Positions 10,376 to 39,650 of a DNA stretch of 64,000 nucleotides are shown here, in pieces (position 1 is the stretch's first letter; each line of letters starts with the position of its first letter). A program made the position numbers and the translations under genes. The notes below the pieces were generated by a model that did no database searches, was not told the DNA's origin, and worked only from the letters and a program-made list of their open reading frames with translations. This DNA comes from Candidatus Latescibacterota bacterium (GTDB lineage: Bacteria; Latescibacterota; UBA2968), in NCBI GenBank assembly GCA_965222605.1, contig OZ244960.1, positions 1,664,001 to 1,728,000 of the forward strand, written 5' to 3'.

Positions 10376-11740
10376 ATGACAACAGATCAAATCAGAGCGC
10401 GTCTTGAAAGCGACAAAATAAAAAAAATTAAACTCGCCGGCTTCGATATCGATGGCGTTATGCGCGGCAAATACATATCGCTCGACAAGTTCTTTTCTGC
10501 CATCGAAAAGGGCCTGGGCTTCTGTGATGTAACATTTGGCTGGGACATAAGCGATCAACTCTACGAACAACCGACCGTCACAGGCTGGCACACCGGATAC
10601 CCAGATCTCCTCGCCAAAATTGACCTGAATACATATCGCGTAATACCCTGGGAGCCGAATACCGCGTTATTTTTACTCGACTTTTACGAAAACAAAAATC
10701 AGCCACTTGCGGTATCCCCGCGCCAACTGCTCCAAACAGTCGTTCGCAAAGCGAATGACATGGAATTTCAGCCATTCATGTCAGCAGAATACGAATACTT
10801 CATCTTTCGGGAAACGCCCCACTCCCTTGAGGACAAAGGATTTGAAAATATGACGCCACTCTCGCCCGGCTGGTTTGGCTACAGTGTGTTGCGGGCATCT
10901 GCGGCTTCAGAATTTGTTCACGCAATAATCGATGGAATGGAAGCGTATGACGTTGAACTGGAAGGGATACACACCGAAACCGGACCCGGCGTATATGAAA
11001 CCGCGATTCGTTACGACACGGCATGCAACGCCGCAGACAAAGCCGCGCTATTCAAAACGGGTGTGAAAGAGATACTCTCCAGACACGGACTCGTGGCAAC
11101 CTTTATGGCGAGGTGGAGTCCAGACTACCCCGGCTGCAGCGGACACCTGCACCAGAGCTTGTGGAATTTAGAGGGAGATACAAATCTATTTGCCGATGAA
11201 TCAGATCCACTGGGTATGTCTCAAATAATGAAACACTATATCGCGGGACAAATCGCTACAATGCCCCACATGATGGCACTGATATGCCCGACCATCAACT
11301 CCTACAAGCGGACAGTCCCCGGAGCCTGGGCGCCAACCAACGCCTCCTGGGGCATTGAAAATCGAACCGCATCTCTCCGCGCGATTCCCAGTACATCCCC
11401 TGAATCCACACGCACCGAATATCGACTGGCCGGCGCCGACGCCAATCCCCATATCTCGATGGCGGCCAGCCTTGCCGCTGGGCTATACGGCATAGAGCAC
11501 CAACTCGACCCCGGTGAACCATTCACGGGAAATGCCTACGAAGCCCCCGAAGGGCGATTTGAGCCTTTGCCAAAATCACTTGAAGAAGCGACAGACCGGT
11601 TAAAAAATAGCGAAATTAGCCGTGCCTGCCTCGGCGATGCATTTGTAGATCACTTCGCAATCACACGCGAACACGAAATTGCGGAATATCGCCGTGCCAT
11701 AACGGATTGGGAACTCAAACGATACTTTGAGATCATCTAA
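10376..11740 (+). CDS. Glutamine synthetase family protein (gamma-glutamyl ligase-like)
   Basis: DGVMRGK, EYEYF, HTETGPGVYE, GHLHQSL, NSYKR, WGIENR; AAAGGA RBS before 10376. Confidence 0.88.
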   Translation: MTTDQIRARLESDKIKKIKLAGFDIDGVMRGKYISLDKFFSAIEKGLGFCDVTFGWDISDQLYEQPTVTGWHTGYPDLLAKIDLNTYRVIPWEPNTALFLLDFYENKNQPLAVSPRQLLQTVVRKANDMEFQPFMSAEYEYFIFRETPHSLEDKGFENMTPLSPGWFGYSVLRASAASEFVHAIIDGMEAYDVELEGIHTETGPGVYETAIRYDTACNAADKAALFKTGVKEILSRHGLVATFMARWSPDYPGCSGHLHQSLWNLEGDTNLFADESDPLGMSQIMKHYIAGQIATMPHMMALICPTINSYKRTVPGAWAPTNASWGIENRTASLRAIPSTSPESTRTEYRLAGADANPHISMAASLAAGLYGIEHQLDPGEPFTGNAYEAPEGRFEPLPKSLEEATDRLKNSEISRACLGDAFVDHFAITREHEIAEYRRAITDWELKRYFEII

Positions 11741-13254
11741 TTCCTAATTCCCCTACCAAACACCTCTACAATATAATGTCCCACCCGCAAGGCATTTGCC
11801 GCAATCGTCAAACTCGGATTGACGCCGCCAGATGTGGGAAACACGCTCCCATCCGTCACAAACAAATTGCCAATCCCGCGAAACTGGCAATTTTCGTCCA
11901 GCACACTCGTCTCTTCATCATCGCCCATACGCACTGACCCCACGCCATGAGAAAAGGTGTCAATGCGATACGTATGAAAAAAAACCGCGCCCGACGCGCG
12001 TAAAATCCCCTTGGCCTTTTCCACCAGATAATTGCGGCGTTCGCAATCCCGCGCTGTGTACTGATGCACGACCTGTGCGCGGCTAATTCCATAAACATCC
12101 TTCTCATCTGCCAGCGCGACGCGATTTTCAAACTGTGGCTCATCCTCGGCAACGCACAACAGATTTTGCAAAAAGCCAGCAGCCATTGCCGTGAGATTTT
12201 TAAGTCCAAAAGGCGCGTGGTACTTCAGCGCTATGGGCGGCGGTGTGTAAATATCCTGAATCACCCCAACAGCGCGACCATCCTGCCCTCGACAATCCTC
12301 GTAAAAATCCGAAAAACACACTTGCTTGTGAAACACCCGCTCCGGATTCGTGCGAAACGGAAACACGCCCGCCACAACGGCATTGCAATGGCGCATCAGA
12401 AAACGCCCAATCAAATCGCCCTGCGGAAACGAATGCAACTCTGACCGCAACAAAATAGCCGGACTTTGCAATGCCCCCGCAGCGACAACAGCAACAGATG
12501 CGGGCACTTCAAACGCCCTTTTTGTTCGCCGATCCACACACGCCACAGCGCGCACGCGCCCCTTTTCACAAATAACACGCGCGACCTGCACGCCCGTCAA
12601 AATCTCAGCCCCTGCATCTTGTGCCAATTTGAGCAACGTCATAGTCAGATCATTTTTAGCCTCAATTTGACACGGAAAACCATCGCAGGTCAAACATCGG
12701 ATACACACGGTTCGCGCCCGATCCGAAAAATTGATCGCCAATGGCATGCGAAAAGGCCGATACCCCAGCGCACATCCAGCATCCCAAATGCGCTGTGCAG
12801 GGCGGGTGAGTTCAATAGGCGGATACAAATAGTCCCCTGTGCGCGGCGGCTCGCACGGATCGACATCCGCCTCTCCATGCACTTCCAACAAGCGCTCGAC
12901 ACAATCGTAATGCGGAGCCAGATCCCCATACAAAATTGGCCACGCGACCAAATCTTCTTCGCGCAGCCTCAGCGATGCCCCACCGTAAAACACGGACATC
13001 CCACCAACCACTTCATTCTCGACCACATCTGAAAAATCGCGGTCCTCATATTGCCTGACGCGAAGCGGTGATGGCCCCTGATAGCGTTTCTCAACCAGCA
13101 CAGAACGGGGATCCCAATCCTCTGCATCGCGTCTTGCCCAATCGCCCCGTTCCAACAGTAAAACCTTCATGCCAGCCGCAGCCAACACATAAGCGCAGGC
13201 ACTACCTCCAAATCCCGTACCGATAATAACGGCGTCGTAATCGTTAAAATTCAT
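11737..13254 (-). CDS. GMC family oxidoreductase with Cys-rich Fe-S motif
   Basis: GTGFGG, VGGMSVFYGG, CIRCLTCDGFPC, HGVGSVRMG, VNPSLTIAANA. Confidence 0.88.
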   Translation of the reverse strand: MNFNDYDAVIIGTGFGGSACAYVLAAAGMKVLLLERGDWARRDAEDWDPRSVLVEKRYQGPSPLRVRQYEDRDFSDVVENEVVGGMSVFYGGASLRLREEDLVAWPILYGDLAPHYDCVERLLEVHGEADVDPCEPPRTGDYLYPPIELTRPAQRIWDAGCALGYRPFRMPLAINFSDRARTVCIRCLTCDGFPCQIEAKNDLTMTLLKLAQDAGAEILTGVQVARVICEKGRVRAVACVDRRTKRAFEVPASVAVVAAGALQSPAILLRSELHSFPQGDLIGRFLMRHCNAVVAGVFPFRTNPERVFHKQVCFSDFYEDCRGQDGRAVGVIQDIYTPPPIALKYHAPFGLKNLTAMAAGFLQNLLCVAEDEPQFENRVALADEKDVYGISRAQVVHQYTARDCERRNYLVEKAKGILRASGAVFFHTYRIDTFSHGVGSVRMGDDEETSVLDENCQFRGIGNLFVTDGSVFPTSGGVNPSLTIAANALRVGHYIVEVFGRGIRN

Positions 13255-14045
13255 TATACCTCAAACACAGACAATACAATTAAACCAATAATAATGACAA
13301 GTGCCCCGTAATGAAATTTTTCTCGGGTATCAATACACCGCTGAATCTGCGGCAAATCGGGGCGAAATTTACCCGACATAGTACGCTGAATATAAGTCTT
13401 GTAATACTCCACAACAAAACGCTCCAACCCACCATTCATATAAACCAGAAATCCCAACGATATGGGATACACGGGATCATTGAGAAAATAGAACAGCGGC
13501 GAACAAATCGCCAGCACCAGGCCCGACCGCTGAAACTTCAAAATTTTAAATCCCTCAAACGGCGCGTCTTTATACGCCCCGCCAAGCGACACCAGCAGGC
13601 CCGTGATATAAGCCGTCAGAAGAAATACCCAGAACATCGTCACAGGCGCGGGAATCAACAACACGGCAAAAACGCCCAGCACCAGCACAGTACCAACCGC
13701 ATAACGCAGCAAATCGCTCGCAACATACCGCCCAAAAAACGTAATGCGCGAAGGCACAAAATACTTATCCTGATCTTCCGTGCGAAAAAACCCCTTGTAG
13801 AGCTCGGCCAAGAACCGCTCCAACCCCATAATCAGAAAAAAAATCTGAACCCATCCCAATGCGAAAAAACTCGCCTCAAAAATCGGTACAAAATACAACA
13901 CCGCAAAAATCACAACATGAAAATAAATACTCCTCGGAAACGTCCTGGGCTTAAAATCCTCATAAGGCGAATCCTTGAACGCCCCCCACAAAGACGTATA
14001 AAGTCCAGATACAATACTCACGCCCAGGCCAATATAGAAATTCAT
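13254..14045 (-). CDS. Integral membrane protein with internal two-fold repeat, family not recognised
   Basis: GAFKDSPYEDF...GLERFLAELYK is repeated as GAYKDAPFEGF...GLERFVVEYYK. Confidence 0.75.
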   Translation of the reverse strand: MNFYIGLGVSIVSGLYTSLWGAFKDSPYEDFKPRTFPRSIYFHVVIFAVLYFVPIFEASFFALGWVQIFFLIMGLERFLAELYKGFFRTEDQDKYFVPSRITFFGRYVASDLLRYAVGTVLVLGVFAVLLIPAPVTMFWVFLLTAYITGLLVSLGGAYKDAPFEGFKILKFQRSGLVLAICSPLFYFLNDPVYPISLGFLVYMNGGLERFVVEYYKTYIQRTMSGKFRPDLPQIQRCIDTREKFHYGALVIIIGLIVLSVFEV

Positions 14046-14073
14046 AGCTATAATTCCGATCCGAGTGATTCCT

Positions 14074-16521
14074 CTACGTCACCTTTTTTCCCTCACGCTC
14101 ATTGCCGCCCTCTCCACGTCGCATCCGCCCCCCTTCAAGCACTTCCAAAATAGCGGGCAACACCAGCACGGCAGCCACAAAACAAGTCCACAAACCAATC
14201 AACGCCAATCGCCCAATCGAATTGAGGCCGGGATGTGCCGCCATCATCAACCCAAAAAAGCCCACCATCGTCGTCAGCATGGAAATGAACATCGCCCCAC
14301 CAGTGCTCCTGATCACCACAGGCATAGATCCGGGACCCTCCTCTCGATACCGGTGATAGAGATGTACCCCATTATCAATTCCCATACCAATGATAGTGGG
14401 CAACGCGACCATATTGTAGAAATTGAGCTTCAAATCCTGCAAATACAGCGAACCACACATCCACACAGTACCGCAGGCAAGAGGAAAAATCACCAGCAAA
14501 GCAGAGCGTAAACTGCGAAAATCAGCCAGCACAATGAGCAACACGACAATCACCGTCAGCGAGATCGCACGCGGACTATCGCGCAGCATCAAGCGCAACA
14601 TATCGGCAAAAATAATATTAGAACTCGACGAATAAAACACCTTTCCCGATGCGGTGTGAATCTCGTGTGAATCTTCGGCAAATGCAATGGCATTTTTCCC
14701 ATCGCGCAACTGCACACTCGGTAAAATTTGTGCAAAATACGCCTGACTCCCATCAATAGTCTTAAATTTTCTCAATAAATTTTCGGGCAAATCCTCAACC
14801 GAAAGCCTTTTGACATTCAACAAATCGCGCAGAGAATCGAGCTTTGCCTTTTGCTCTCCCTTGATCAAATTCGCGCCCTCGCCATTGGTCAACGCGCGAA
14901 TTTCCCCAATAATATCCAGCTTCTCATCTTGACCGCGCAGCTCTGTCCAGAGTGTTTTAACTTTGTCAATCGTCGGCGTTGGATCATCTTCCGATATTTT
15001 CTTTTCCAATGCGGCCACAATTTCATCGAGTTCCGCTTTGCTATCCGCCAGCACAATGCCATAAGACTGCGATTCACTGCCGTATTTCGGAATCGTCGCC
15101 ATCTTTTGTTTTACTTTCACCGATGCGGGCAAGTTGGAACGCAAATTGGTAAAATCGTATTCAAAATCTATATCGCGCAAATGAATACCCAGATATATTG
15201 TGAGGATCAACGCACCGGCAAGCACCAACTTTGGATATGGAAAATGTCCCCTGCTACCGCCCCAATTGTGTCCCCACACATGCCGCATGCGAATCCACAT
15301 GAACTTTTGATCCGCCAGCACCAGCACAGCGGGCAATACAGTCGTCATCGATACCAGCGACATCAAAATACCCGTGCCCACAATAAAACCAAACTCGGAA
15401 AACCCCCTGAAATCTGTCAGCGTCAGAAAAAAGAACGCAATTGACGTGGTTATCGCCGCCGTCAAAATAGCCTGTCCAGTCTGACTCAGCATCGTCTCTA
15501 TGGACATCCGTACATCCGTCTTATCCATGCGAACTTCGAGATATCGCGCAAACATGTGAATACCAAAATCGATCCCCAGTCCAAACAAAATCACAAATAG
15601 AAAAGCCGTCATAGTATTCAAATTGCCGATAACCCAATAGGTAATGGCAAACGCCCAGATCAAGCCCATTGCCAGCGGAATAGCCACAAAAAAAGCCGCC
15701 AATGGTTGGCGGAAATAAAACGTCAAAAGCGCGACAATACCCACGACACCAAATATCAACGTCGAACGCACATCGCTTAAAATGGTATCGTATTCGTCAA
15801 TTTTATTCTTAAACGGTCCCCCGTATTCAATCAACATCTGAGGATGATACGCGCGCGGATTCACCTTCTTGACCGCCTGCTGGATCACCTGCTGCATATC
15901 TTTGGCAAAACCGATATTGCTCACCGTACCTGCTGCCATCGCCTCCAATGCCAGAATGGTGCGGTCGGGATTGGTATAATACGTCTCATCCCCATTATCT
16001 GCCGTGCGATACTTCGACTCAATATCCGAAAAATCGAGCACGGCTTCTTCTTCATCAAGAGAAATATACAACGGCGACAGCTTCAACTTTTCCTGGATAA
16101 TATAATCATCTATGCGTGTGAGAATCTCATCCAAATCATCCGTTTCCATAAACAACAGCGCATTTTTGCGATAAAATTCCGCATCTCGCTTGTAATCGAC
16201 AAAGTTGATATAGGTCTCGTATTTTTCATCCTGTAATTCATGTGCCAGATCCTCGGCAAAACGCCTATTTGCCTCAAAATCGGGACTCTGTACCAAAACC
16301 ACCAAACTGCCCACACCACCCACGCGCTGTTTGATCTCATTGAGCGTCTTCACACTCTGATAATTTTCCGGAATCAGAGCAACGAGATCCGTCTCGAGTT
16401 TGCGTCCGAGCCTGTACACAAAAATACTGCAAAAAGCCGTCAACAAAATCGACACCACAAGAATACCTTTGTAGTGCCGATAAGTCCACCCCGCCAAAAA
16501 ACGAAGCACCACTTCAACCAA
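14074..16521 (-). CDS. MMPL/RND family transporter (HpnN-like lipid exporter)
   Basis: Two TM blocks with GLGIDFGIH and GMGIDNGVH, two periplasmic domains. Confidence 0.9.
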   Translation of the reverse strand: MVEVVLRFLAGWTYRHYKGILVVSILLTAFCSIFVYRLGRKLETDLVALIPENYQSVKTLNEIKQRVGGVGSLVVLVQSPDFEANRRFAEDLAHELQDEKYETYINFVDYKRDAEFYRKNALLFMETDDLDEILTRIDDYIIQEKLKLSPLYISLDEEEAVLDFSDIESKYRTADNGDETYYTNPDRTILALEAMAAGTVSNIGFAKDMQQVIQQAVKKVNPRAYHPQMLIEYGGPFKNKIDEYDTILSDVRSTLIFGVVGIVALLTFYFRQPLAAFFVAIPLAMGLIWAFAITYWVIGNLNTMTAFLFVILFGLGIDFGIHMFARYLEVRMDKTDVRMSIETMLSQTGQAILTAAITTSIAFFFLTLTDFRGFSEFGFIVGTGILMSLVSMTTVLPAVLVLADQKFMWIRMRHVWGHNWGGSRGHFPYPKLVLAGALILTIYLGIHLRDIDFEYDFTNLRSNLPASVKVKQKMATIPKYGSESQSYGIVLADSKAELDEIVAALEKKISEDDPTPTIDKVKTLWTELRGQDEKLDIIGEIRALTNGEGANLIKGEQKAKLDSLRDLLNVKRLSVEDLPENLLRKFKTIDGSQAYFAQILPSVQLRDGKNAIAFAEDSHEIHTASGKVFYSSSSNIIFADMLRLMLRDSPRAISLTVIVVLLIVLADFRSLRSALLVIFPLACGTVWMCGSLYLQDLKLNFYNMVALPTIIGMGIDNGVHLYHRYREEGPGSMPVVIRSTGGAMFISMLTTMVGFFGLMMAAHPGLNSIGRLALIGLWTCFVAAVLVLPAILEVLEGGRMRRGEGGNEREGKKVT

Positions 16522-16535
16522 TGAATGCCACCTTT

Positions 16536-17132
16536 CTAATCCGACGTATCTTCACCCAGTTTTTCTTTTAACTTATCCATCAAGCCAGCAAAAGAAGACT
16601 TGCGAATCTCCCGGCGAAACTGCGACCGGTTGCTGCGCGCAACACTCAACTCATCGATGACCATATCGTAAATCAACCACTTGCCATCAACGAGATGCAA
16701 TTTATAGTCAATCGTACTCGACTCGCGCCTGTAATACACCACTGTTTTGACAATCGCCTGTGTGCTATCAACCTCGACACCCGTATAGTCGATCTTTTCT
16801 GCTTTCGTATATAACGCGGGATCGGCGTAATTTCTCTCGATCAACTGCCTGTTCACAGCCACAAAATCGGCTCGCTCTTCTTCTGTTCGCGCCGTCCAAT
16901 CTCGTCCGAGGGACTCCCGGCTAAATGTTTCAAAATCGAACAACTCACCGACAATAGCTTTAAGCGCAGCGCGCTCTTCAGCCGTACCGCCCCCGGTTTC
17001 TGAACGCACAATATCCTGAATCGCCCGATCGCGGCTCTTCACCATCTCGAGCAGCGCATCGCCCTGATCAGACGCACCCGCCACACCCATCAAAACGAGC
17101 GTCAGAAACGCAGGTCTAAACAATGAAATCAT
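16536..17132 (-). CDS. MlaC/Ttg2D/HpnM-like periplasmic lipid-binding protein
   Basis: Signal peptide; FDFETFSRESLGRDW, IDYKL, WLIYDMVIDELSVARSNRSQF. Confidence 0.85.
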   Translation of the reverse strand: MISLFRPAFLTLVLMGVAGASDQGDALLEMVKSRDRAIQDIVRSETGGGTAEERAALKAIVGELFDFETFSRESLGRDWTARTEEERADFVAVNRQLIERNYADPALYTKAEKIDYTGVEVDSTQAIVKTVVYYRRESSTIDYKLHLVDGKWLIYDMVIDELSVARSNRSQFRREIRKSSFAGLMDKLKEKLGEDTSD

Positions 17133-17413
17133 AATATATCGCCTATTAATATCAACAACTTGTTTGCAGACGGAATCTCCGTCGATTTTAATATCTTTCC
17201 CTCCCAAAGTCAAGGCAGCGGCAATTTGTCTTTGAGAAAGAGAGCTTAAGTATTAACAAAAATAAAGAACGCCTATTTTGCAACAAAATTCTCTAATGAT
17301 CTTTAAAAAAATACAGCGAAAGATTTTATCGGGATAATGGCGTACAAACAAACTTCTGTTGAAGTTGTACACCGCTCCAACAGAAGTTTATCCCAATTCA
17401 GACAGGGTTTGCA

Positions 17414-18868
17414 TCAATCAGCTTTCTCTCCCAACTTCCCCTCATCCACATTCAAAGCACCGCGCGCGCGAAGCATCTGCCCGCCAAAGCCAAAAATACC
17501 CGCCGTCAACAGCGCGGAACCAATCACGAGAAACCAGTACATACCCTCAATACTATTGGCGACAGATAGTGTGCAAAAGAAAGCGGCAAAAAAATCGCGG
17601 CGACTCACAAATTTGAGCGACATACAAAAACGGTGAAAAAACCCGCGTTCACTCTCGGGAACATCGCTCGAAAACGCCATATTAAAACTCACAATACTGC
17701 CGGACCCCACCACTTTCATATAAAGAAAAATCAGCAACACCCCCAACACATCGAGAAAAACCATCACACCGCCCAGCAGGGGATAAAATGCCTCGCCCGT
17801 ATATTCGTACATCCCGGCGAGCACCGCGATAAAAAACACGAGATAAGATACATTATCCGCCAGCGTATCGACCCACTCGCCCAGGCGAGAACCCATAAAT
17901 TTTAATTTGGCAATCTCGCCATCGCACCCATCTACGATAGACGCAAACTGAAATAACAGCCCACCCAGTGCCAGATGCAAATAACTCGCACTCCCCTTAA
18001 AAACCAGCCACGCCGACAAAAAACTCAACAACATCGTCGCAATCGACAACTGATTTGGCGTAATAGGTGTATGCACGAGCAGGCGAGAAATGCGCGTGGA
18101 AATTTTGCGATTGAAATAACGCGACACAAAGCCATCGGTCGGCTTGCCAAGCCTGCGAAACATCTCCTGCTCGGCGTGGACATGCGCCTCGGGCGTATCC
18201 ACATCGAGCCAAAACGCGCCATCGATATCCGCAGTCCGCATACTGCCTTTCTCAGCCAAAACGCGAATTCCCCCCGACAATGACCCCTCGCCCTCTGCAA
18301 CAGACTGCTCAAGCGCGCCAAACAAAAACGGACTGCACAGAAAAATCCCCGTATCCACCGCATTGAAATCGGCCAACTCTTTTCCAATTTTGACCACGCG
18401 ATGATTCTGTGTCATCACCTTCGTGGCATCTTCCATATCAAAAATGCCATCGATATCTGTATCGACACACAGCACAGCTTCATCCCGTCCAACCGGCATA
18501 CGACGCAACTTGACCAGTATTTCGGGATCAAACAGATGATCGGACATCAAAAGAATAAACGGCTCATCGACATATTCCCTGGCACTCAATACCGACACCC
18601 CATTGCCGCGCGCCCATTCCTTATTTTGAACCCAATCAATTGCCACACCCGAAAGCTGAGGATCATCGGCAAGCGCGTGCATAATCTCGTGGCACCGATA
18701 CCCAACCACAACCACAAACTCTGAAATACCCGCGCGCATAGCCGACAAAATCGTGCGCTTGAGCAATGGCACGCCGGCCAGGGGAACGAGAGGCTTGGGC
18801 AAATCCGCCCCATAACCTCTCAACCGACTACCCATTCCGGCGGCAATAATTACAGCTTTATTCACCAT
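17414..18868 (-). CDS. Bifunctional NTP transferase / CDP-alcohol phosphotransferase (IPCT/DIPPS-like)
   Basis: AAGMGSRL..PKPL, GNGVS, MSDHLF, DATKV, IGK...VDTG; C-terminal DGFVSRYFNR, ITPNQ, DGCDGEIAK..G.WVDTLAD. Confidence 0.88.
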   Translation of the reverse strand: MVNKAVIIAAGMGSRLRGYGADLPKPLVPLAGVPLLKRTILSAMRAGISEFVVVVGYRCHEIMHALADDPQLSGVAIDWVQNKEWARGNGVSVLSAREYVDEPFILLMSDHLFDPEILVKLRRMPVGRDEAVLCVDTDIDGIFDMEDATKVMTQNHRVVKIGKELADFNAVDTGIFLCSPFLFGALEQSVAEGEGSLSGGIRVLAEKGSMRTADIDGAFWLDVDTPEAHVHAEQEMFRRLGKPTDGFVSRYFNRKISTRISRLLVHTPITPNQLSIATMLLSFLSAWLVFKGSASYLHLALGGLLFQFASIVDGCDGEIAKLKFMGSRLGEWVDTLADNVSYLVFFIAVLAGMYEYTGEAFYPLLGGVMVFLDVLGVLLIFLYMKVVGSGSIVSFNMAFSSDVPESERGFFHRFCMSLKFVSRRDFFAAFFCTLSVANSIEGMYWFLVIGSALLTAGIFGFGGQMLRARGALNVDEGKLGEKAD

Positions 18869-18902
18869 AACTCCTGCAACCTTTCGCAATATCCCGAGCG
18901 AA

Positions 18903-20258
18903 TTACAAAAGACTGCGCCCAACAGCCCGTTGTAATCTTACCCAGGATCGGTTAAAATTGAACACTGCTTCGTAATATTTGGCGCGAATAATGCCGTACT
19001 CTTTTGCGGCATCAATCATATCCGAAGCCTCTTCAAGCCCGGCATTAAACCCATCGCGAACCGATACAAACCACCGGCGGGTCGCCCGCCGCGCCTTGCT
19101 GGCAGCCGCCATATTCTTCTGTGCCTCGATCAACTCGCGGTAAATCTTCTCAATTTCAATTGCCACGCCCTTCTCAGCCAGTTGCTTCTGATACACCAAC
19201 TTCTGATATTCCAAACTCGCTTTCCGCGCCTTCGCCGACGCAAGCCCAAACGACAGCGACTGCCGAATACCTATCACCGCCCCTGCCTGCAAAATATTGA
19301 AATCATCTCTGGCGAAAGGACTTAGTTGATCGTCGCGGTTCGGTGCATAGCCATACTTAAATTGACCCGCAATAAATATCTGGGGATACTGCTCGCCTTT
19401 TGCCACCTGCACCAGGGATTCACGCACCTGCACAACAGCCTGCAACTGCTGCATATCCTCGCGCGCTCCCGCACGTTTGAGATAAAACTCAAGCGGCTCA
19501 ATCTCCACATCAACCGGCGTTAAAGGACCAGCAAGAGTCAGCGAATCCCCTTCGCTCAATCCCAAAAGCAGGCGCAGGGCAGACTCGGCAAGAGCTTTGG
19601 TTTTCGATACCTCGTGTAATTTTTCGCTCACATCAAAGGCAAACCGATCAATACGGCCCAGATCGGCATACGTAAAATCGCCTTCCTCTGCCTCCAGTTT
19701 CTCCGTCACAAAATCGCGCGCCGTTTGAAAATCACTTTGCGCCTCTAATGCCAGCGTCCACAAATCCTGCGTCAGTTGCAACCCAAAATACACCTCGGCA
19801 ACCTGAAGCTCCAGATCGCCCCGCGCCTTTCGCAGTCCCGCCTGCCGAGCCGTCACCCCTGCCATAGCTGCTGCTTTGGCCCCGGATAACTGACCAAATG
19901 TGAACAGAGGTTGTACAACCGTGGCCTCCGTACGCGTAAACACACTCAAATGACTCAGCATGGTATTGCCATCGAGCGCGTCACCGCGCGCTTCGGGCGA
20001 GGGACCAATAACAGACCGCAATTCAAACTGCGGCAAAAAGCGAACGGCATTGGCCTGATCTAATTGCGCCCGTGCAATATCGACATCAACCACTGCTGCA
20101 CGCACGCCGGGATGCACGCGCATAGCCCGTGCAATACTCGCAGACAAATCATAAGTTTCGGCGTGTACAGAATGCACACAGATAAAAATCCCCAACCCGG
20201 ACACACACAGCTTTAGCATGTGTGAAAAAACAACACACCTGTGGCATTTTAACAACAT
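18903..20258 (-). CDS. TolC family outer membrane protein
   Basis: Signal peptide; FLPQF, QPLFTFG, YPQIF repeats; CAGGAG RBS before 20258. Confidence 0.85.
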   Translation of the reverse strand: MLLKCHRCVVFSHMLKLCVSGLGIFICVHSVHAETYDLSASIARAMRVHPGVRAAVVDVDIARAQLDQANAVRFLPQFELRSVIGPSPEARGDALDGNTMLSHLSVFTRTEATVVQPLFTFGQLSGAKAAAMAGVTARQAGLRKARGDLELQVAEVYFGLQLTQDLWTLALEAQSDFQTARDFVTEKLEAEEGDFTYADLGRIDRFAFDVSEKLHEVSKTKALAESALRLLLGLSEGDSLTLAGPLTPVDVEIEPLEFYLKRAGAREDMQQLQAVVQVRESLVQVAKGEQYPQIFIAGQFKYGYAPNRDDQLSPFARDDFNILQAGAVIGIRQSLSFGLASAKARKASLEYQKLVYQKQLAEKGVAIEIEKIYRELIEAQKNMAAASKARRATRRWFVSVRDGFNAGLEEASDMIDAAKEYGIIRAKYYEAVFNFNRSWVRLQRAVGRSLL

Positions 20259-20366
20259 ATCTCTCCTGAACTCCGGCGAAAATTCAGATCTATAAAAATA
20301 TATACCTATATAAAACAAATATTTAGAAATAACATTCAACAGACACATAATATCTTCCCCTATATA

Positions 20367-20382
20367 AGCGAAATTCGTGCCA
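20367..20382 (-). promoter_or_regulatory. Putative sigma-54 (-24/-12) promoter
   Basis: TGGCACGAATTTCGCT on the minus strand (GG-N10-GC), about 110 bp upstream of the TolC start in an AT-rich intergenic region. Confidence 0.65.
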
Positions 20383-20509
20383 ACGTAAAAATCTAAAAAA
20401 AACCGGACAAAAGCCCGGTTAGCTACCATCAACCTTTAGAGTTCAGCTATACTAACGTTTTGCTCCGCGAGTAGTTCCCTTCCATCCGCTCCAGGGCAAA
20501 ACAAAATAT

Positions 20510-21457
20510 TCACCGCCGCACCGCCATCAAAACAAATCCAAAAAACACCCAAAAAATTTTCCGAATGCGCCGAATCAATGCAACGCCCAATCCCAATTCG
20601 GGTGTCAACCCCAACAATTGAAAAAGAAACACATGCCCGCTCTCAAAAACACCGACACCAGATGGAATAAAGAAAAACGCCGTATTGATAATCAACGCCA
20701 AAGACACAAACAAAAATGCGGTCAAAAAGGGTTGTGGCTGCCCCAACAAGTTGAGAATCGCATACACTTCAAAAGTTCCCAAAACCCAACTCAGCATGTG
20801 CAACGCCATACACAGCCAGAACCCCAGGCGATTCTGCTGGTAAAATGCCGCAATCGTCCGATCAACTTCTTCAAATTTTTCACGCCTCGACTCCAAAAAA
20901 GAGAGACGCAACTTTTTTAAAATATCCAGCATCCATACAGACGCCCGTTGGCGCTGAGACACATAAGCCGCCACAATCCCCACCGTACCCAACACCAGGG
21001 CAACCCCCAATCCAATCTGCACTTCTACTGGAAGTGAAAACATACCCACAGCCAACCCCGTGCCAACCAGCGCGAAAACCAGGCCGCTCACCATTTCAAC
21101 CGTCTTATTGATCACCAGAGAGGGTACGCCCTGCGTCACAGAAACCCGATCGCGCAACATATACGCTTTGGCCAACTCACCGCCCACATGGGAAGCCGGT
21201 GTGACATTGCCAACAGCTTCTCCCGACAACTTTGTGCAAAAAAGTGACCAAAAATGAGGCCGATCGCCATCAAAACACATCGCCCAGGCCCACGTATTGC
21301 TCACATGCCAGCCCAATGCAATGAGCAAAACAGGTACATAGCCCCAACCCATCTGTCGCACTTGCGACCATGCGGCCATAATCCCAACCTCGTAAATTAA
21401 CACCGCCAGCAGTGTTAACCCAATTCCCCAGAACATCACTCTGCGCGCAGTTCTCAT
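20510..21457 (-). CDS. Lysylphosphatidylglycerol synthase TM / flippase-like membrane protein
   Basis: TPASHVGGELAK, FFIPSGVGVFE, LIRRIR. Confidence 0.85.
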   Translation of the reverse strand: MRTARRVMFWGIGLTLLAVLIYEVGIMAAWSQVRQMGWGYVPVLLIALGWHVSNTWAWAMCFDGDRPHFWSLFCTKLSGEAVGNVTPASHVGGELAKAYMLRDRVSVTQGVPSLVINKTVEMVSGLVFALVGTGLAVGMFSLPVEVQIGLGVALVLGTVGIVAAYVSQRQRASVWMLDILKKLRLSFLESRREKFEEVDRTIAAFYQQNRLGFWLCMALHMLSWVLGTFEVYAILNLLGQPQPFLTAFLFVSLALIINTAFFFIPSGVGVFESGHVFLFQLLGLTPELGLGVALIRRIRKIFWVFFGFVLMAVRR

Positions 21458-21530: not shown

Positions 21531-23039
21531 TCAATTAATCCGCATAATCACGTGATAGCCCAGAGGGGTTTTGATAATCCCGCTGACTTCATTGGGTTTG
21601 AGCTTCATCACTGCGGCTTCAAAATCTGGGTGCAAATCGCCCTTAGAAAAAAATCCCGTGCTTCCGCCATTTTCTTTTGAAGGATCAACAGAATAACTCC
21701 TCGCCAAAGCGGCAAAATCTTCTCCGGATTTGAGCTTGTTCAAAATTTCCTGAGCCTCAATTTCCGTCTTCACCAGAATATGCCGCACCCGCATCTTGCC
21801 CGCCTGAATCGACTTAATAATATCCAGATTGCCCTGTGCATCGCGCAGCGTATTGGCATCCTTGCTCTCTGCCATTGCCGTTTCATACGCTCTTCGCGCC
21901 TTGTCAAAATCTCCCCGAGACGAATAAATAAACCCCAAATTGTTGTGAACCTCGGCATCTTTGGGATCAATCGCCAATGCCTTCTCGTAAATCACACCCG
22001 CAGAATCGACCTTCTCTTCGCCCAAATACAGCAATGCCAACCGTTTATAGGGCGCAATCCACCTGGGCGCGCGCGAGATACAGGTCAACAGTTCGGCCTT
22101 GCCCTGTGCAATATCGCCCCTGGCCACATACACTTCCGCCAGCCGAAATCGCACCAAATTGCCATCGGGCGCGCGCTCCAAAATGCCCAGCATCTCGCCA
22201 ATACTGGCGTCAAATTTACCTCTGGCCGCGTACAACTGGGCAAGTGCATCGCGCACCTCGAGATCATCGGGAGCGAGATCGCGCACCTTTTCCCATGCTG
22301 TCTGTGCCATATCCAAAGAATCCACTTCTGCACCCATAAAACCGAGCGCGCGATATACCGACGGATCTTCTGGCGCAGCAGCAACAGCTTGTCGATATGC
22401 CGCAAAAGCCTTCTGCGTCATCCCCAGCGCGTGAAAAACCCCACCTCGATTGACCATCAACATCACATTGCCCGGATTGGCAGCAAGACCGCGATCCATG
22501 GCGGCGATTGCATTGAGTGTATCTCCAACCGCAATGTGGGTCAGCGCCAGAGATTGATACACCTCAATAAAATCGGGACGGCGTTTGAGTGCCGCTTCAA
22601 AATCGGCAATAGCTTCTTTGGGCTTGCCCAGATCGCCATTGAGAGATGCGCGCTCTGCCAGAAGCAAAGCGGGTTCATCGCTTTGTCCAATACCCCGATT
22701 CAGCGCAGAAAGAGCCTGAGAAAATTTGCCTTGCCGGGCGAACACCAGCGCCAGATCGCGATATCCTCGAACAGAACTCGGTTTTATCTCCACGACCTTT
22801 TGAAAAGCGGCTGCAGCAGCGTCCATCTGTCCGGCCTCTGCGTAAAGCGTACCCAAAAAACCGTGCGCTGCCATACTATCGGCATGTGCCTCGACAAAAG
22901 CGCGCGCCACCTCGAGAGCGTCGTCAATTTTGCCGTCGCTATAATGCGCCTCAATCTCTTTCAAAAAGTCCCGCGCATCCACAACCGGGGCCTGAAAAAA
23001 TATCATACCCCATACAAAACACAGCATCCTCCGTTTCAA
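21531..23039 (-). CDS. Exported TPR-repeat protein with C-terminal parvulin (PpiC) PPIase domain
   Basis: Multiple TPRs; VRHILVK, FAALARSYSVDPSKENGG, IIKTPLGYHVI; TTG start after GGAGG. Confidence 0.88.
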   Translation of the reverse strand: MKRRMLCFVWGMIFFQAPVVDARDFLKEIEAHYSDGKIDDALEVARAFVEAHADSMAAHGFLGTLYAEAGQMDAAAAAFQKVVEIKPSSVRGYRDLALVFARQGKFSQALSALNRGIGQSDEPALLLAERASLNGDLGKPKEAIADFEAALKRRPDFIEVYQSLALTHIAVGDTLNAIAAMDRGLAANPGNVMLMVNRGGVFHALGMTQKAFAAYRQAVAAAPEDPSVYRALGFMGAEVDSLDMAQTAWEKVRDLAPDDLEVRDALAQLYAARGKFDASIGEMLGILERAPDGNLVRFRLAEVYVARGDIAQGKAELLTCISRAPRWIAPYKRLALLYLGEEKVDSAGVIYEKALAIDPKDAEVHNNLGFIYSSRGDFDKARRAYETAMAESKDANTLRDAQGNLDIIKSIQAGKMRVRHILVKTEIEAQEILNKLKSGEDFAALARSYSVDPSKENGGSTGFFSKGDLHPDFEAAVMKLKPNEVSGIIKTPLGYHVIMRIN

Positions 23040-23055
23040 AATTTGACCTCCATCC

Positions 23056-23084
23056 TTGACAACATCAATACAACACAATATACT
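23056..23084 (+). promoter_or_regulatory. Near-consensus sigma-70 promoter
   Basis: TTGACA-N17-TATACT. Confidence 0.7.
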
Positions 23085-23090
23085 CACTTT

Positions 23091-23130
23091 TTGTATCTTT
23101 GCATCTTTGTGTCTTCATGTCTTTGTGTGA
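23091..23130 (+). repeat. Degenerate 8-bp tandem repeat x5
   Basis: ttgtatct ttgcatct ttgtgtct tcatgtct ttgtgtga. Confidence 0.7.
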
Positions 23131-23150
23131 GACCCTCTCACTTTTCACCT

Positions 23151-23711
23151 ATGAAAAATATCAAACAAAACGCCGTTCCACTCATAGCCTTTCTAATCGC
23201 GGGAAGCACAGCGATACTCGCTTACGACCACTTGCCCTACGTGATTCCCTTTGTGGTCTTTAAGTATCCCATCGCCATTGTCGTACTCTACGCATTTTTT
23301 CACCTCATCGCTTATGCAGAGCGTCGCCGCAGTGCCCAACTCGACGAAGTGGGCTTGCTTCGGCCCTTGCGCGATGGCGCATTCCTCGTATGCCTGCACG
23401 CACACCTGCGCGACCTCGGTATAGACCTGAGCCTTTTATCGTCGGCATCCAGCATACACCTCGCCCTGTTATCATGGGCAGTCGCCCTCATCGGATATTA
23501 TGCCATTGAGCAACCCGGCGGACTACCCGGTCGCTTAATCAATATCCTGTCCTCTTCTGCTACGCGCATCACAGTCTGCCGCGGACTCATCATCTCGGGA
23601 CTTCTGGGCGTGATCGGCACATTCGCGGCAATCGCGCAGCCTCTCTGGCTTGGCCTACCCCTGCTTCTGGTATTCATTCGCGCCTATCAGCGGTCCGGAG
23701 ACGGATCGTGA
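23151..23711 (+). CDS. Hypothetical membrane protein
   Basis: Hydrophobic 3' part (186 aa) of the 21780..23711 ORF, downstream of the promoter; GTGA-coupled to the EamA gene. Confidence 0.7.
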   Translation: MKNIKQNAVPLIAFLIAGSTAILAYDHLPYVIPFVVFKYPIAIVVLYAFFHLIAYAERRRSAQLDEVGLLRPLRDGAFLVCLHAHLRDLGIDLSLLSSASSIHLALLSWAVALIGYYAIEQPGGLPGRLINILSSSATRITVCRGLIISGLLGVIGTFAAIAQPLWLGLPLLLVFIRAYQRSGDGS

Positions 23712-38702: not shown

Positions 38703-39650
38703 TCATTCTGTATTCTCCGGGTTCTTTTCAACTGTGGGCCTTGGAATAATAAAGATAATATCATCGTAATCAGCTTCGACAACTGTTTCCGTATTATTTG
38801 AATCGGTGAGCAACCCCAAATAATCTACTGGACGGGGATCACCACCGAACAGACGGCGATAGTCTTGATATGCATTCACTTCTTCCCAAACCCATTTCCC
38901 CAGATCGTCTGTACCGCTGCGCAACACAATCATATGTTGTCTGCTACTCGAAATAACCGTGCCTTTGGGAAGTGTTTCGCTCCAGATGTATTTGAGCGAT
39001 TTGCCCGCCAGAGGATTCAAAGAACTCTTTCCTATGATCAGACGTACAGCAGCGGCACTATCATTTTTGTCATCGTCTGTTTCATCAGACCCCTCTGGAA
39101 AATTGTGTACGCGCCAGCGCCAGCGCAATTTCCGGAATGAACGCAAACTGGCTTTGATTTCTCTGCCGCGATACGTGATCTTTGCTTCTCTCCCAAAATT
39201 TACAGCACCGCCTCTTGTCTTCGCGTTCAGATAATGATTATTGTCTTCTTGTAGGATCCGATAGTAAACATCTTCTTTTTTAGTTTTGCTAAATCGCCAG
39301 CCCGACCGTCCCTCCCAGATCTTGTCGGGATAAGAATTCAAAAATCGCGGATAGTCAAAGGTATCGAGAACACGAGTGGAGTCCCCCGCAGGCGTGACCC
39401 AGTGGGTAGGAGGCTGTGAGGGATCTGTTATTTCAAGTGTGATCGAAGGATCGAGACCTGACCTGGACGGATCGGTCATCGCAGGATCAACAGCCGTAGA
39501 ATCAACAGGTACAGAGACAACCGGTTGAACGCCCGTAGAATCGGGACCGGCAGCAAAGCATGTGCTGGCATACTTAAAGCATGTAGCAAATACCACGAGT
39601 ACGCACAGCCTGAGAACCATGCTTATCAAGTGGGAACGCAATCCCATCAT
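38703..39650 (-). CDS. DUF3047 domain exported protein
   Basis: LRWRWRV, NDSAAAV, LKYIWS, WVWEEVN...DYRRLFG, LLTDSNNT. Confidence 0.8.
   Translation of the reverse strand: MMGLRSHLISMVLRLCVLVVFATCFKYASTCFAAGPDSTGVQPVVSVPVDSTAVDPAMTDPSRSGLDPSITLEITDPSQPPTHWVTPAGDSTRVLDTFDYPRFLNSYPDKIWEGRSGWRFSKTKKEDVYYRILQEDNNHYLNAKTRGGAVNFGREAKITYRGREIKASLRSFRKLRWRWRVHNFPEGSDETDDDKNDSAAAVRLIIGKSSLNPLAGKSLKYIWSETLPKGTVISSSRQHMIVLRSGTDDLGKWVWEEVNAYQDYRRLFGGDPRPVDYLGLLTDSNNTETVVEADYDDIIFIIPRPTVEKNPENTE

Follow-up and report, generated by a model that had tools for sequence, protein, structure and literature searches.

Genes of the operon

The window analyzed here is a stretch of 64,000 nucleotides (positions 1,664,001 to 1,728,000 of contig OZ244960.1, assembly GCA_965222605.1) from a Candidatus Latescibacterota bacterium whose genome is held in a single contig of 6.34 Mb and is 98.7% complete. 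In this window, seven co-oriented open reading frames (ORFs) fill positions 11737-21457 of the minus strand, and the likely role of the operon that they form is to produce an unusual lipid of the envelope and to export it. Five of these genes, hereafter unit A (20510-21457 and 14074-20432), encode an HpnL-like, MprF-type "flippase-like" membrane protein in which the synthase domain is not present (20510..21457, -; PF03706 LPG_synthase_TM, 102.8 bits), a TolC-family outer-membrane channel protein (18903..20432, -; PF02321 OEP, 97.5 bits in two stretches), a fusion of an IPCT-like cytidylyltransferase with a CDP-alcohol phosphotransferase (CDP-AP) (17414..18922, -; Pfam NTP_transf_3, NTP_transferase, and CDP-OH_P_transf), a MlaC/HpnM-like periplasmic lipid carrier (16536..17213, -; PF05494 MlaC, 110.1 bits), and an HpnN/BstA-like RND inner-membrane lipid transporter of the MMPL, HAE3 type (14074..16521, -; PF03176 MMPL, 134.7 bits). 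The two remaining genes, hereafter unit B (11737-14045), encode dupTM, an internally duplicated membrane protein of 263 amino acids that matches no Pfam or NCBIfam family (13254..14045, -), and a GMC-family FAD dehydrogenase with a four-cysteine cluster (11737..13254, -; GMC_oxred_N and GMC_oxred_C). The ORF positions, together with Pfam and NCBIfam, thus bear out the seven co-oriented genes and the domains that an earlier note, made from the letters of this DNA, had named.

The operon is tightly packed: the start of the GMC gene and the stop of dupTM share one base, the RND and MlaC genes are spaced by 14 nt, and the sole larger gap, of about 200-280 nt, separates the enzyme from the MlaC gene. 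This gap contains two promoter-like sites on the minus strand, which are consensus matches only and are not used as evidence here. The five genes of unit A, the RND pump among them, are each present in a single copy in the genome, and the MlaC-like gene is also unique when the genome is searched by tblastn with both the window's MlaC protein and those of a related family (f4, see below). With regard to translation starts, the true start of the TolC protein probably lies downstream of the listed TTG, because the matches of its relatives mostly begin at residues 34 to 80. The enzyme probably starts at the Met at 18868, which gives a protein of 484 amino acids, and its homologues are 484-491 amino acids in length. 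Likewise, the MlaC-like protein, whose translation has a hydrophobic N-terminal stretch, probably starts at an internal Met ahead of this signal-peptide-like segment.

MlaC-type carriers and HpnN/MMPL-type pumps are described as lipid transport proteins (PMC12324291), and the RND pump of the window displays the MMPL twofold repeat, with PF03176 found in two stretches alongside matches to Sterol-sensing and SecD_SecF_C. The flippase-like protein exceeds the cut-off of the TIGR00374 flippase-like family (73.8 bits vs 43.2), and its best NCBIfam match is to HpnL, below cut-off (TIGR03476, 145.6 bits vs 195.65). The same holds for the MlaC-like protein with HpnM (TIGR03481, 63.8 vs 160.1) and for the RND pump with HpnN (TIGR03480, 324.5 vs 751.85), BstA (202.4 vs 1400), and HAE3 (183.9 vs 351.9); the NF052374 score, 208.4 vs 1100, is below cut-off too. 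Moreover, the squalene-hopene cyclase model TIGR01507 has no match in the single-contig genome, such that the earlier statement that no hopanoid genes lie in the window extends to all 6.34 Mb, and the RND/MlaC pair does not track with hopanoid genes; it is such tracking that the earlier note had named as contrary to its lipid-export proposal. Hopanoid transport was rejected on these two grounds, namely the missing cyclase and the HpnL, HpnM, and HpnN models all falling below cut-off. As for the canonical Mla system, the only match to MlaD in the genome lies at 2.226 Mb, far from the window; MlaE, MlaF, and MlaA were not searched genome-wide.

Conservation of two separable units

The 15 loci found through the enzyme are near-identical relatives of the window (94-97% identity, one at 75%), and all of them carry the enzyme, MlaC, RND, dupTM, and GMC genes in order, the HpnL and TolC genes being also seen in 14 of the 15, when the remaining contig ends in TolC. 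Insertions inside the set were found in three of these loci. Inserts of ~1.4-1.9 kb lie between the enzyme and MlaC genes (L002, L011) and of ~6 kb between HpnL and TolC (L011, L014), and in a further locus, L034, a ~6-kb insert lies between MlaC and the enzyme and the GMC gene is missing at its expected place.

A wider picture comes from a sample of 168 genomes of the phylum, in which the class of the window comprises families f1-f4 (132 genomes, the window's included) and families f5-f14 account for the other 36. The dupTM gene is found in 125 of the 168 genomes, all of them within the class (125/132), at 65-97% identity across it: 30/30 genomes of f1 plus the window's own, 20/22 of f2, 0/3 of f3, and 74/76 of f4, as against 0/36 in f5-f14. 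We sampled 20 dupTM loci, six from f1/f2 and 14 from f4. The TolC, enzyme, MlaC, RND, and dupTM genes are together in all six f1/f2 loci (HpnL in five, GMC in five), and in 19 of the 20 loci dupTM has GMC as its immediate neighbor, usually with an overlap of ~20 nt. However, this pair is all that remains joined in the f4 loci (14/14), where the rest of the set lies elsewhere. Because the pair stands apart in this way, the seven-gene set is two units and not one, and unit B is a separable accessory, joined to unit A only in the window's order. In both f4 loci examined further, a GFO/IDH/MocA oxidoreductase gene comes after GMC.

Unit A, for its part, is conserved across much greater distances. 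Five f4 genomes have their best RND-pump matches (41-45% identity) at the same place as those to the enzyme domains, and in four of the five, a region of ~9 kb encodes a TetR regulator, an NTP-transferase, a 470-aa CDP-AP, LPG_synthase_TM, OEP, a 447-aa DUF3047 protein, MlaC, MMPL, and, as last gene, a TPR/FG-GAP/ASPIC protein. The proteins of this module are only 27-45% identical to those of the window and the gene order is changed; in the fifth genome, the module is found in two places, CDP-AP with HpnL in one and TolC, DUF3047, MlaC, and RND in the other. Outside the class, an f13 locus (L127) presents in a row radical SAM, fused enzyme, DUF3047, RND, HAD, and PEMT/ICMT-like methyltransferase genes. 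In f3, the RND pump is found beside a VTT/DedA protein and BacA; both of these families are linked to undecaprenyl-phosphate recycling. Of the seven genes, for which the earlier note had proposed a synteny search, the five of unit A are linked across two orders and, in part, in other phyla, and dupTM and GMC are joined to them in the window's order only.

The pairing of enzyme and flippase-like gene can also be followed in metagenomes. A profile scan built from an alignment of distant homologues returned 80 metagenome loci, many of them on short contigs, whose neighbors were identified by tblastn with window and f4 proteins. An inositol-3-phosphate synthase (MIPS) gene adjoins the enzyme gene in 22 of the 80 loci and an HpnL-like gene in 19, the two being together in none of the 80; DUF3047, TolC, and MlaC genes are near the enzyme in two. 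Four metagenome loci were further subjected to a Pfam scan of their neighborhood. Two of them (L110, L118) carry a soil-type cassette made up of a CarboxypepD_reg outer-membrane barrel, an NTP-transferase, LPG_synthase_TM, a CDP-AP, and Exo_endo_phos, with a LolA_like gene in one (L110); a third (L047) combines the fused enzyme with a radical SAM/SPASM protein, a MlaC-DUF3047 fusion, OEP, and MlaC; and in the fourth (L054), genes for a PlsB-like acyltransferase and LPG_synthase_TM run divergently to those for the fused enzyme and a radical SAM protein. A single open reading frame encodes both LPG_synthase_TM and CDP-AP in 11 of 12 soil-type loci, and both Pfam domains were confirmed in 6/6 of those tested. 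The relatives of the HpnL-like protein hence adjoin, or are fused with, CDP-APs. Given a linkage that is conserved yet rearranged, plus this gene fusion, the view of unit A as a biosynthesis-plus-export unit is well supported.

Several side observations concern the same gene families. The single-ORF fusions (L100, L105-L107, L109-L111, L114, L115, L122, and L125) are 754-926 amino acids long and are preceded by a separate NTP-transferase gene. The genome of the window itself holds a second pair at 4.60 Mb (4600635-4602206; L126:6576-8210), in which a gene for a 220-aa CDP-AP is followed by one for an HpnL-like protein 44% identical to that of the window, and then by five ORFs without a Pfam family. 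The fused enzyme has a radical SAM gene as its direct neighbor in three loci that are unrelated (L047:11437-12438, with SPASM too; L054:9629-10591; L127:6342-7403), and there is no such counterpart in the window operon. DUF3047, found inside the f4 and f13 modules, is also fused to MlaC in L047 and to a dupTM relative in P0279, and a DUF3047 protein (126.8 bits) is encoded in the window at 38703-39650 (-), 17 kb from the operon.

Directly upstream of the seven genes lies a gene whose product combines TPR repeats with a PpiC-type peptidyl-prolyl isomerase domain at its C-terminus (21531..23087, -; Pfam TPR families and Rotamase_3, 80.8 bits). This gene is syntenic in five of the six f1/f2 loci and in 14 of the 15 loci found through the enzyme, the exceptions being loci that do not extend to that side (L034 stops inside HpnL and L004 begins in TolC). 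Its product may be a periplasmic helper of the system, of which its membership is uncertain. Antisense to it, a 643-aa ORF without a Pfam family (21780-23711, +) most likely represents a shadow frame. Over window positions 1-64000, 31 of the 32 2-kb bins have a negative GC skew, which fits the location of most genes on the minus strand.

Turning to unit B, the GMC enzyme is of the type found as catalytic subunit in membrane-bound, FAD-dependent sugar dehydrogenase complexes. A profile made from 20 of its orthologs hits the alpha subunit of the FAD-glucose dehydrogenase of Burkholderia (6A2U) over its full length (positions 3-497, 167 bits), and the large subunit of the fructose dehydrogenase of Gluconobacter (7W2J) at 138 bits. 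Residues C184, C187, C190, and C195 are invariant in 20/20 orthologs and align with a Cys-rich stretch of 6A2U, which we take to be the holder of the 3Fe-4S cluster in that protein. A 3Fe-4S cluster is indeed described for this alpha subunit (PMC6719666), and by analogy the GMC enzyme would carry an Fe-S cluster. Since no signal peptide is visible in its translation, the enzyme probably faces the cytoplasm. Neither a Tat hitch-hiker small subunit nor a multi-haem cytochrome c subunit is found in the operon, the rest of the genome not having been searched for them.

Its partner dupTM had been noted earlier as a duplicated membrane protein, and this duplication is real, since its halves align at 34% identity over 95 residues with an E-value of 4e-12. 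An AlphaFold2 (AF2) model of dupTM (pLDDT 85.4, pTM 0.87) found no usable fold match, the best hit of Foldseek against the PDB having an E-value of 0.29 and that of VIA-align over 48,161 chains a Z of 4.4; an unmatched model does not prove a new fold. With 332 representatives among 1.84 billion (E<=1e-3), dupTM belongs to a small family, and a protein atlas search with dupTM returned only unnamed "hypothetical protein" clusters. One long member of the family is fused to DUF3047 (69.6 bits, above cut-off) and two have weak matches to VTT/DedA, below cut-off. Because DUF3047 in f4/f13 and VTT in f3 neighbor the RND pump, unit B is tied, modestly, to the transport theme. A complex prediction for GMC and dupTM scored 0.00, which says nothing for or against binding.

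Lineage of the fused enzyme

Pfam, an AF2 model, and fold searches agree that the enzyme joins an IPCT-type cytidylyltransferase domain to a six-helix CDP-AP domain. By sequence, its matches are the IPCT-DIPPS of 4MND (190.7 bits), the IPCTs of 2XME (98.6) and 4JD0 (88.3), and, much lower, the LicC-type 1JYK (27.5), and it scores 258.2 on the IPCT/DIPPS model NF041135, below the curated equivalog cut-off of 580. The AF2 model, built from 21 sequences (pLDDT 89), predicts a juxtamembrane helix and six transmembrane (TM) helices, TM4 and TM5 being separated by an insert of short helices (392-422). A fold search with this model places 4MND first (E 4.3e-24, TM-score 0.68/0.79), and the modeled N-terminal domain is close to 4JD0 and 2XME (TMt 0.84-0.89), to which it is 29-33% identical, vs 16-25% for sugar-1-phosphate transferases.

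The CDP-AP signature comprises eight residues, D1xxD2G1xxAR...G2xxxD3xxxD4, and its Arg is described as "absolutely conserved" (PMC4634129). The enzyme of the window reads DGCDGEIAK...G...D...D and thereby retains seven of the eight, including all four Asp, the signature Arg being replaced by Lys. This position varies with the genomic setting of the enzyme: it is Arg in 17/17 MIPS-adjacent enzymes, in 5/5 of the f4 module, and in 2/2 f4 fusions of IPCT, DIPPS, and HAD domains; Lys in five, Asn in one, and Thr in one of the window clade; Gln in 2/2 export-adjacent enzymes; and Lys in one and Arg in one of the HpnL-adjacent enzymes, 11/13 of which do not match the full pattern. The median number of residues after DxxDGxxA differs as well, being 131 in the MIPS-adjacent enzymes, 179 in the f4 module, 178 in the window clade, 161 in the export-adjacent, and 168 in the HpnL-adjacent enzymes. 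A juxtamembrane stretch, DGxxSxxxNRxxS, is common to the window enzyme and all 17 MIPS-linked ones.

To place these enzymes, we inferred a phylogeny (quick LG+G4 search) of 75 sequences, 61 from the 80 metagenome loci and 14 from Latescibacterota, restricted to complete ORFs of >=380 amino acids whose match reaches query residue 360, with long fusions trimmed to their enzyme part. A single clade (SH-aLRT 100) unites all 17 MIPS-adjacent sequences with the two f4 IPCT-DIPPS-HAD fusions, and the window clade (7 sequences, support 99) lies outside it, with the 13 HpnL-adjacent, two export-adjacent, and five f4-module sequences. The deepest split of the tree has only 81% SH-aLRT support and long branches are flagged. 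As judged from these sequences, the enzyme is IPCT/DIPPS-like but belongs to a distinct lineage, not to the MIPS-linked type, that of di-myo-inositol phosphate (DIP). Because it falls outside the MIPS-adjacent clade, the synthesis of soluble DIP only, which the earlier note had named as an outcome contrary to its proposal, is not the best reading. The f4 triple fusions (NTP-transferase/CDP-AP/HAD, 766-781 aa; L041:8559-10904 and L042) seem, from their domains, to lead in a single protein to di-inositol-phosphate or to an inositol lipid; that of L041 adjoins GFO/IDH/MocA and aldehyde dehydrogenase genes.

The nature of the head group is a separate matter, since the likeness to IPCT, and it solely, points to inositol. 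The earlier note had called for a check of the genome for an inositol-3-phosphate synthase; the gene is indeed there, at 4.248 Mb, where GFO/IDH/MocA and LysR genes are its neighbors, and so unlinked to the operon. The other CDP-APs of the genome resemble PgsA, a PgsA/Cls-like enzyme, PssA, and a phosphatidylinositol phosphate (PIP)-synthase-like enzyme, which scores below the three relevant cut-offs (172 vs 350, 149.5 vs 180, and 128 vs 170). Because this PIP-synthase-like gene is also present, the support that MIPS lends to an inositol head group is weakened.

A probable envelope lipid and its alternatives

We consider it somewhat better than an even chance that unit A builds a polyol-phosphate lipid, flips it, and exports it to the outer membrane, by a Kennedy-type pathway coupled to trans-envelope export, with unit B as an accessory. 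The sequences show the domains, the fold, the gene linkage with its phylogenetic spread, and the lack of hopanoid and lipid A genes; the substrates at each step, the way in which the lipid would travel, and the connection of unit B with unit A are inferred. The N-terminal domain of the enzyme would activate a polyol phosphate with CTP, most likely myo-inositol-1-phosphate to give CDP-inositol, and its six-helix CDP-AP domain would, on the cytoplasmic side of the inner membrane, hand the polyol-phosphate on to an acceptor. The HpnL-like, MprF-type protein could then flip the product or help to hold the lipid, the HpnN-like RND pump would draw it out of the inner membrane's outer leaflet, the MlaC-like carrier would move it across the periplasm, and the TolC-family protein would act at the outer membrane. 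As for unit B, it would supply a cytoplasm-facing FAD/Fe-S dehydrogenase of the sugar/polyol-oxidizing GMC branch, with dupTM as its partner, and may oxidize the head group or a related polyol. On the whole, the interpretation put forward in the earlier note is partly supported.

A number of observations weigh against this scheme. The evidence is all genomic and comes from uncultured organisms. The membrane domain of the enzyme is modeled with only six TM helices, as in CDP-APs with soluble acceptors, and according to PMC4634129 six helices are tied to soluble acceptors, lipid-acceptor enzymes such as CEPT1 having three to four extra C-terminal helices; the lipid acceptor is for this reason inferred from context and not from the enzyme. 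The loss of the signature Arg, with Asn or Thr in its place in two orthologs, may mean that the activity is altered or reduced. MIPS lies 2.57 Mb from the window (itself at 1.66-1.73 Mb), and the PIP-synthase-like gene is a possible alternative consumer of its product, inositol-1-phosphate. The Pfam scan found no MFP/adaptor gene in the operon, which makes a coupling to TolC hard to explain. The separation of dupTM and GMC from the other genes in f4 goes against a single seven-gene system, and a Wzx-like polysaccharide flippase encoded near the enzyme in L127 fits a glycan target equally well.

Whatever the lipid, the envelope in which it would act is unusual. None of the 132 f1-f4 genomes, that of the window included, has LpxC or LpxB, vs 36/36 and 30/36, respectively, in the rest of the phylum sample. 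LptD had no match in the window's genome, in a search whose control was positive in only two reference genomes, and Omp85/BamA is clear there. Judging by these genes, the class seems to be diderm, with BamA and TolC as signs of an outer membrane, and to lack lipid A, following an apparent class-wide loss, of which our literature search found no report, just as it found none of the gene combination. This setting invites the stronger proposal that the operon makes and delivers a replacement outer-membrane lipid, a polyol-phosphate (inositol-phosphate) lipid built by a DIPPS-derived enzyme with an MprF-like partner, carried along an RND-MlaC-TolC route, and remodeled by unit B, which we deem unlikely. 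Orthologs of the RND pump (E<=1e-60) do occur in 129 of the 132 genomes of the class vs 6/36 elsewhere, but those six (f13, f14) have LpxC, so the pump is not tied to the loss of lipopolysaccharide (LPS), and the RND module was rejected as a strict correlate of that loss. Because the loss of lipid A represents one event in one class, it is context and not statistical support.

Less likely again is a head group other than inositol, such as choline, ethanolamine, glycerol, or another alcohol-phosphate, the operon then making a common phospholipid via the Kennedy route. One homologue is labeled "phosphocholine cytidylyltransferase family protein" and others, at JGI, "choline kinase/phosphatidylglycerophosphate synthase," MIPS is unlinked, a PEMT/ICMT-like methyltransferase gene belongs to the L127 cluster, and the relative AF2299 is described as binding CDP-glycerol (PMC4634129). 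Against this stand the far greater proximity of the enzyme to IPCT (2XME and 4JD0) than to LicC-type 1JYK, in bit score as in modeled fold, and the DGxxSxxxNRxxS stretch that it has in common with all the MIPS-linked enzymes.

Lower still, we would place the possibility that the enzyme is an ordinary synthase of DIP or another soluble solute (an osmolyte or piezolyte) and that RND, MlaC, and TolC serve an unrelated transport of lipids or solvents. IPCT-DIPPS is indeed the nearest characterized relative, soluble-acceptor enzymes typically have such a six-TM build (PMC4634129), MIPS is present in the genome, and IPCT/DIPPS genes have been reported in deep-sea, non-thermophilic Thaumarchaeota and in Atribacteria of sediments. 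However, the window clade does not group with the 17 MIPS-adjacent enzymes, all of which share one clade, has lost the signature Arg, and carries an insert; its linkage with HpnL-like, TolC, MlaC, and RND genes is kept across orders in spite of 27-45% identity and a changed order; and in the soil-type loci, the CDP-AP is fused to a flippase-like domain in 11/12 cases. In addition, f4 genomes hold a separate, DIPPS-type IPCT-DIPPS-HAD fusion besides the module, and from this presence of both lineages in f4 we argue that they do different jobs.

The least probable of the alternatives is that the polyol-phosphate goes to a surface polymer (teichoic-acid-like, or capsule), to a glycan, or to an intermediate linked to polyprenol, with the flippase-like protein moving that intermediate, for which speak the Wzx-like gene (Polysacc_synt/MatE) that L127 has two genes ahead of the orthologous enzyme, the BacA and DedA/VTT neighbors of the RND pump in f3, the AglD-type glycosylation proteins among the relatives of PF03706 (PMC12324291), and the inositol of the Bacteroides capsule (PMC9246714), and the inositol apart, the evidence on the other side is that lipids are what MlaC-type carriers and HpnN/MMPL-type pumps are known to move (PMC12324291), that a PlsB-like acyltransferase gene adjoins the pair in L054, and that the Pfam scan found no glycosyltransferase in the window operon.

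Should unit A indeed make and export a polyol-phosphate lipid, it would bear on the poorly understood question of how diderms lacking LPS build and supply their outer membrane, few dedicated lipid-export routes being known. The locus offers an IPCT/DIPPS-like lineage outside the context of compatible solutes and tied, in places by fusion, to an MprF-type domain, an HpnN/MlaC-type export set without hopanoids, and a conserved family of membrane proteins of no known fold paired with a putative iron-sulfur GMC dehydrogenase, when the class offers what looks like a clean natural case of lipid A loss within a candidate phylum. Besides, the relatives found here could help to settle the product of the "alternative" inositol-lipid enzyme pair of Bacteroidetes, which is still unconfirmed.

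Compared with known systems, the GMC enzyme of unit B has the fold, full-length profile match, and aligned Cys-rich site of FAD-GDH alpha (6A2U) and fructose dehydrogenase (7W2J), but its cysteines are spaced CxxCxxCxxxxC, vs CCxxxxCxxxC in 6A2U, and its partner is dupTM in place of an adjacent hitch-hiker or cytochrome c subunit. The MlaC protein is above the Pfam cut-off but, unlike in the Mla system, is not encoded with MlaFEDB. An RND pump combined with a periplasmic carrier is also what is described for HpnN-HpnM(-HpnL) of Pseudomonadota (PMC12324291) and for BstABC of Methylococcus (PMC10942540), HpnM being MlaC-like as is the window carrier, with HpnL-like and TPR proteins nearby too; the window proteins nevertheless score below these family cut-offs, the genome is devoid of squalene-hopene cyclase, and the operon has a TolC-family gene instead of an MlaA/HpnS-like one and a head-group enzyme joined to it.

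The enzyme itself is nearest, in sequence and in fold, to the IPCT-DIPPS of Archaeoglobus fulgidus (4MND), which has the same two-domain build, an identical juxtamembrane NRKISTRIS, and the same four signature Asp. It departs from the IPCT-DIPPS type (NF041135) by its score below cut-off, the Lys in place of Arg, its position outside the MIPS-linked clade, ~45 additional residues after the motif, modeled as the short helices between TM4 and TM5, and its linkage to flippase-like and lipid-export genes instead of MIPS. The other point of reference is the NTP-transferase/CDP-AP/HAD cluster of Bacteroides vulgatus and Prevotella, for which a Kennedy-type route via CDP-inositol has been proposed, as yet unconfirmed (Heaver et al. 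2022, PMC9246714). In the window the two enzymes are fused, the operon has neither HAD hydrolase nor MIPS, and the RND/MlaC/TolC set is attached. HAD hydrolases are seen in L127 and in the f4 triple fusion. Compared by description, the NTP-transferase, the CDP-AP, and the lysyl-phosphatidylglycerol (PG)-synthase-like neighbor of the alternative Bacteroides cluster have counterparts of like kind here, the last as LPG_synthase_TM, with a similar Kennedy-type logic proposed, and in that description lysyl-PG-synthase-like and carboxypeptidase-regulatory-like genes lie near both Bacteroidetes inositol-lipid clusters (PMC9246714), the CarboxypepD_reg outer-membrane barrel being likewise a neighbor of the soil-type relatives of the window enzyme.

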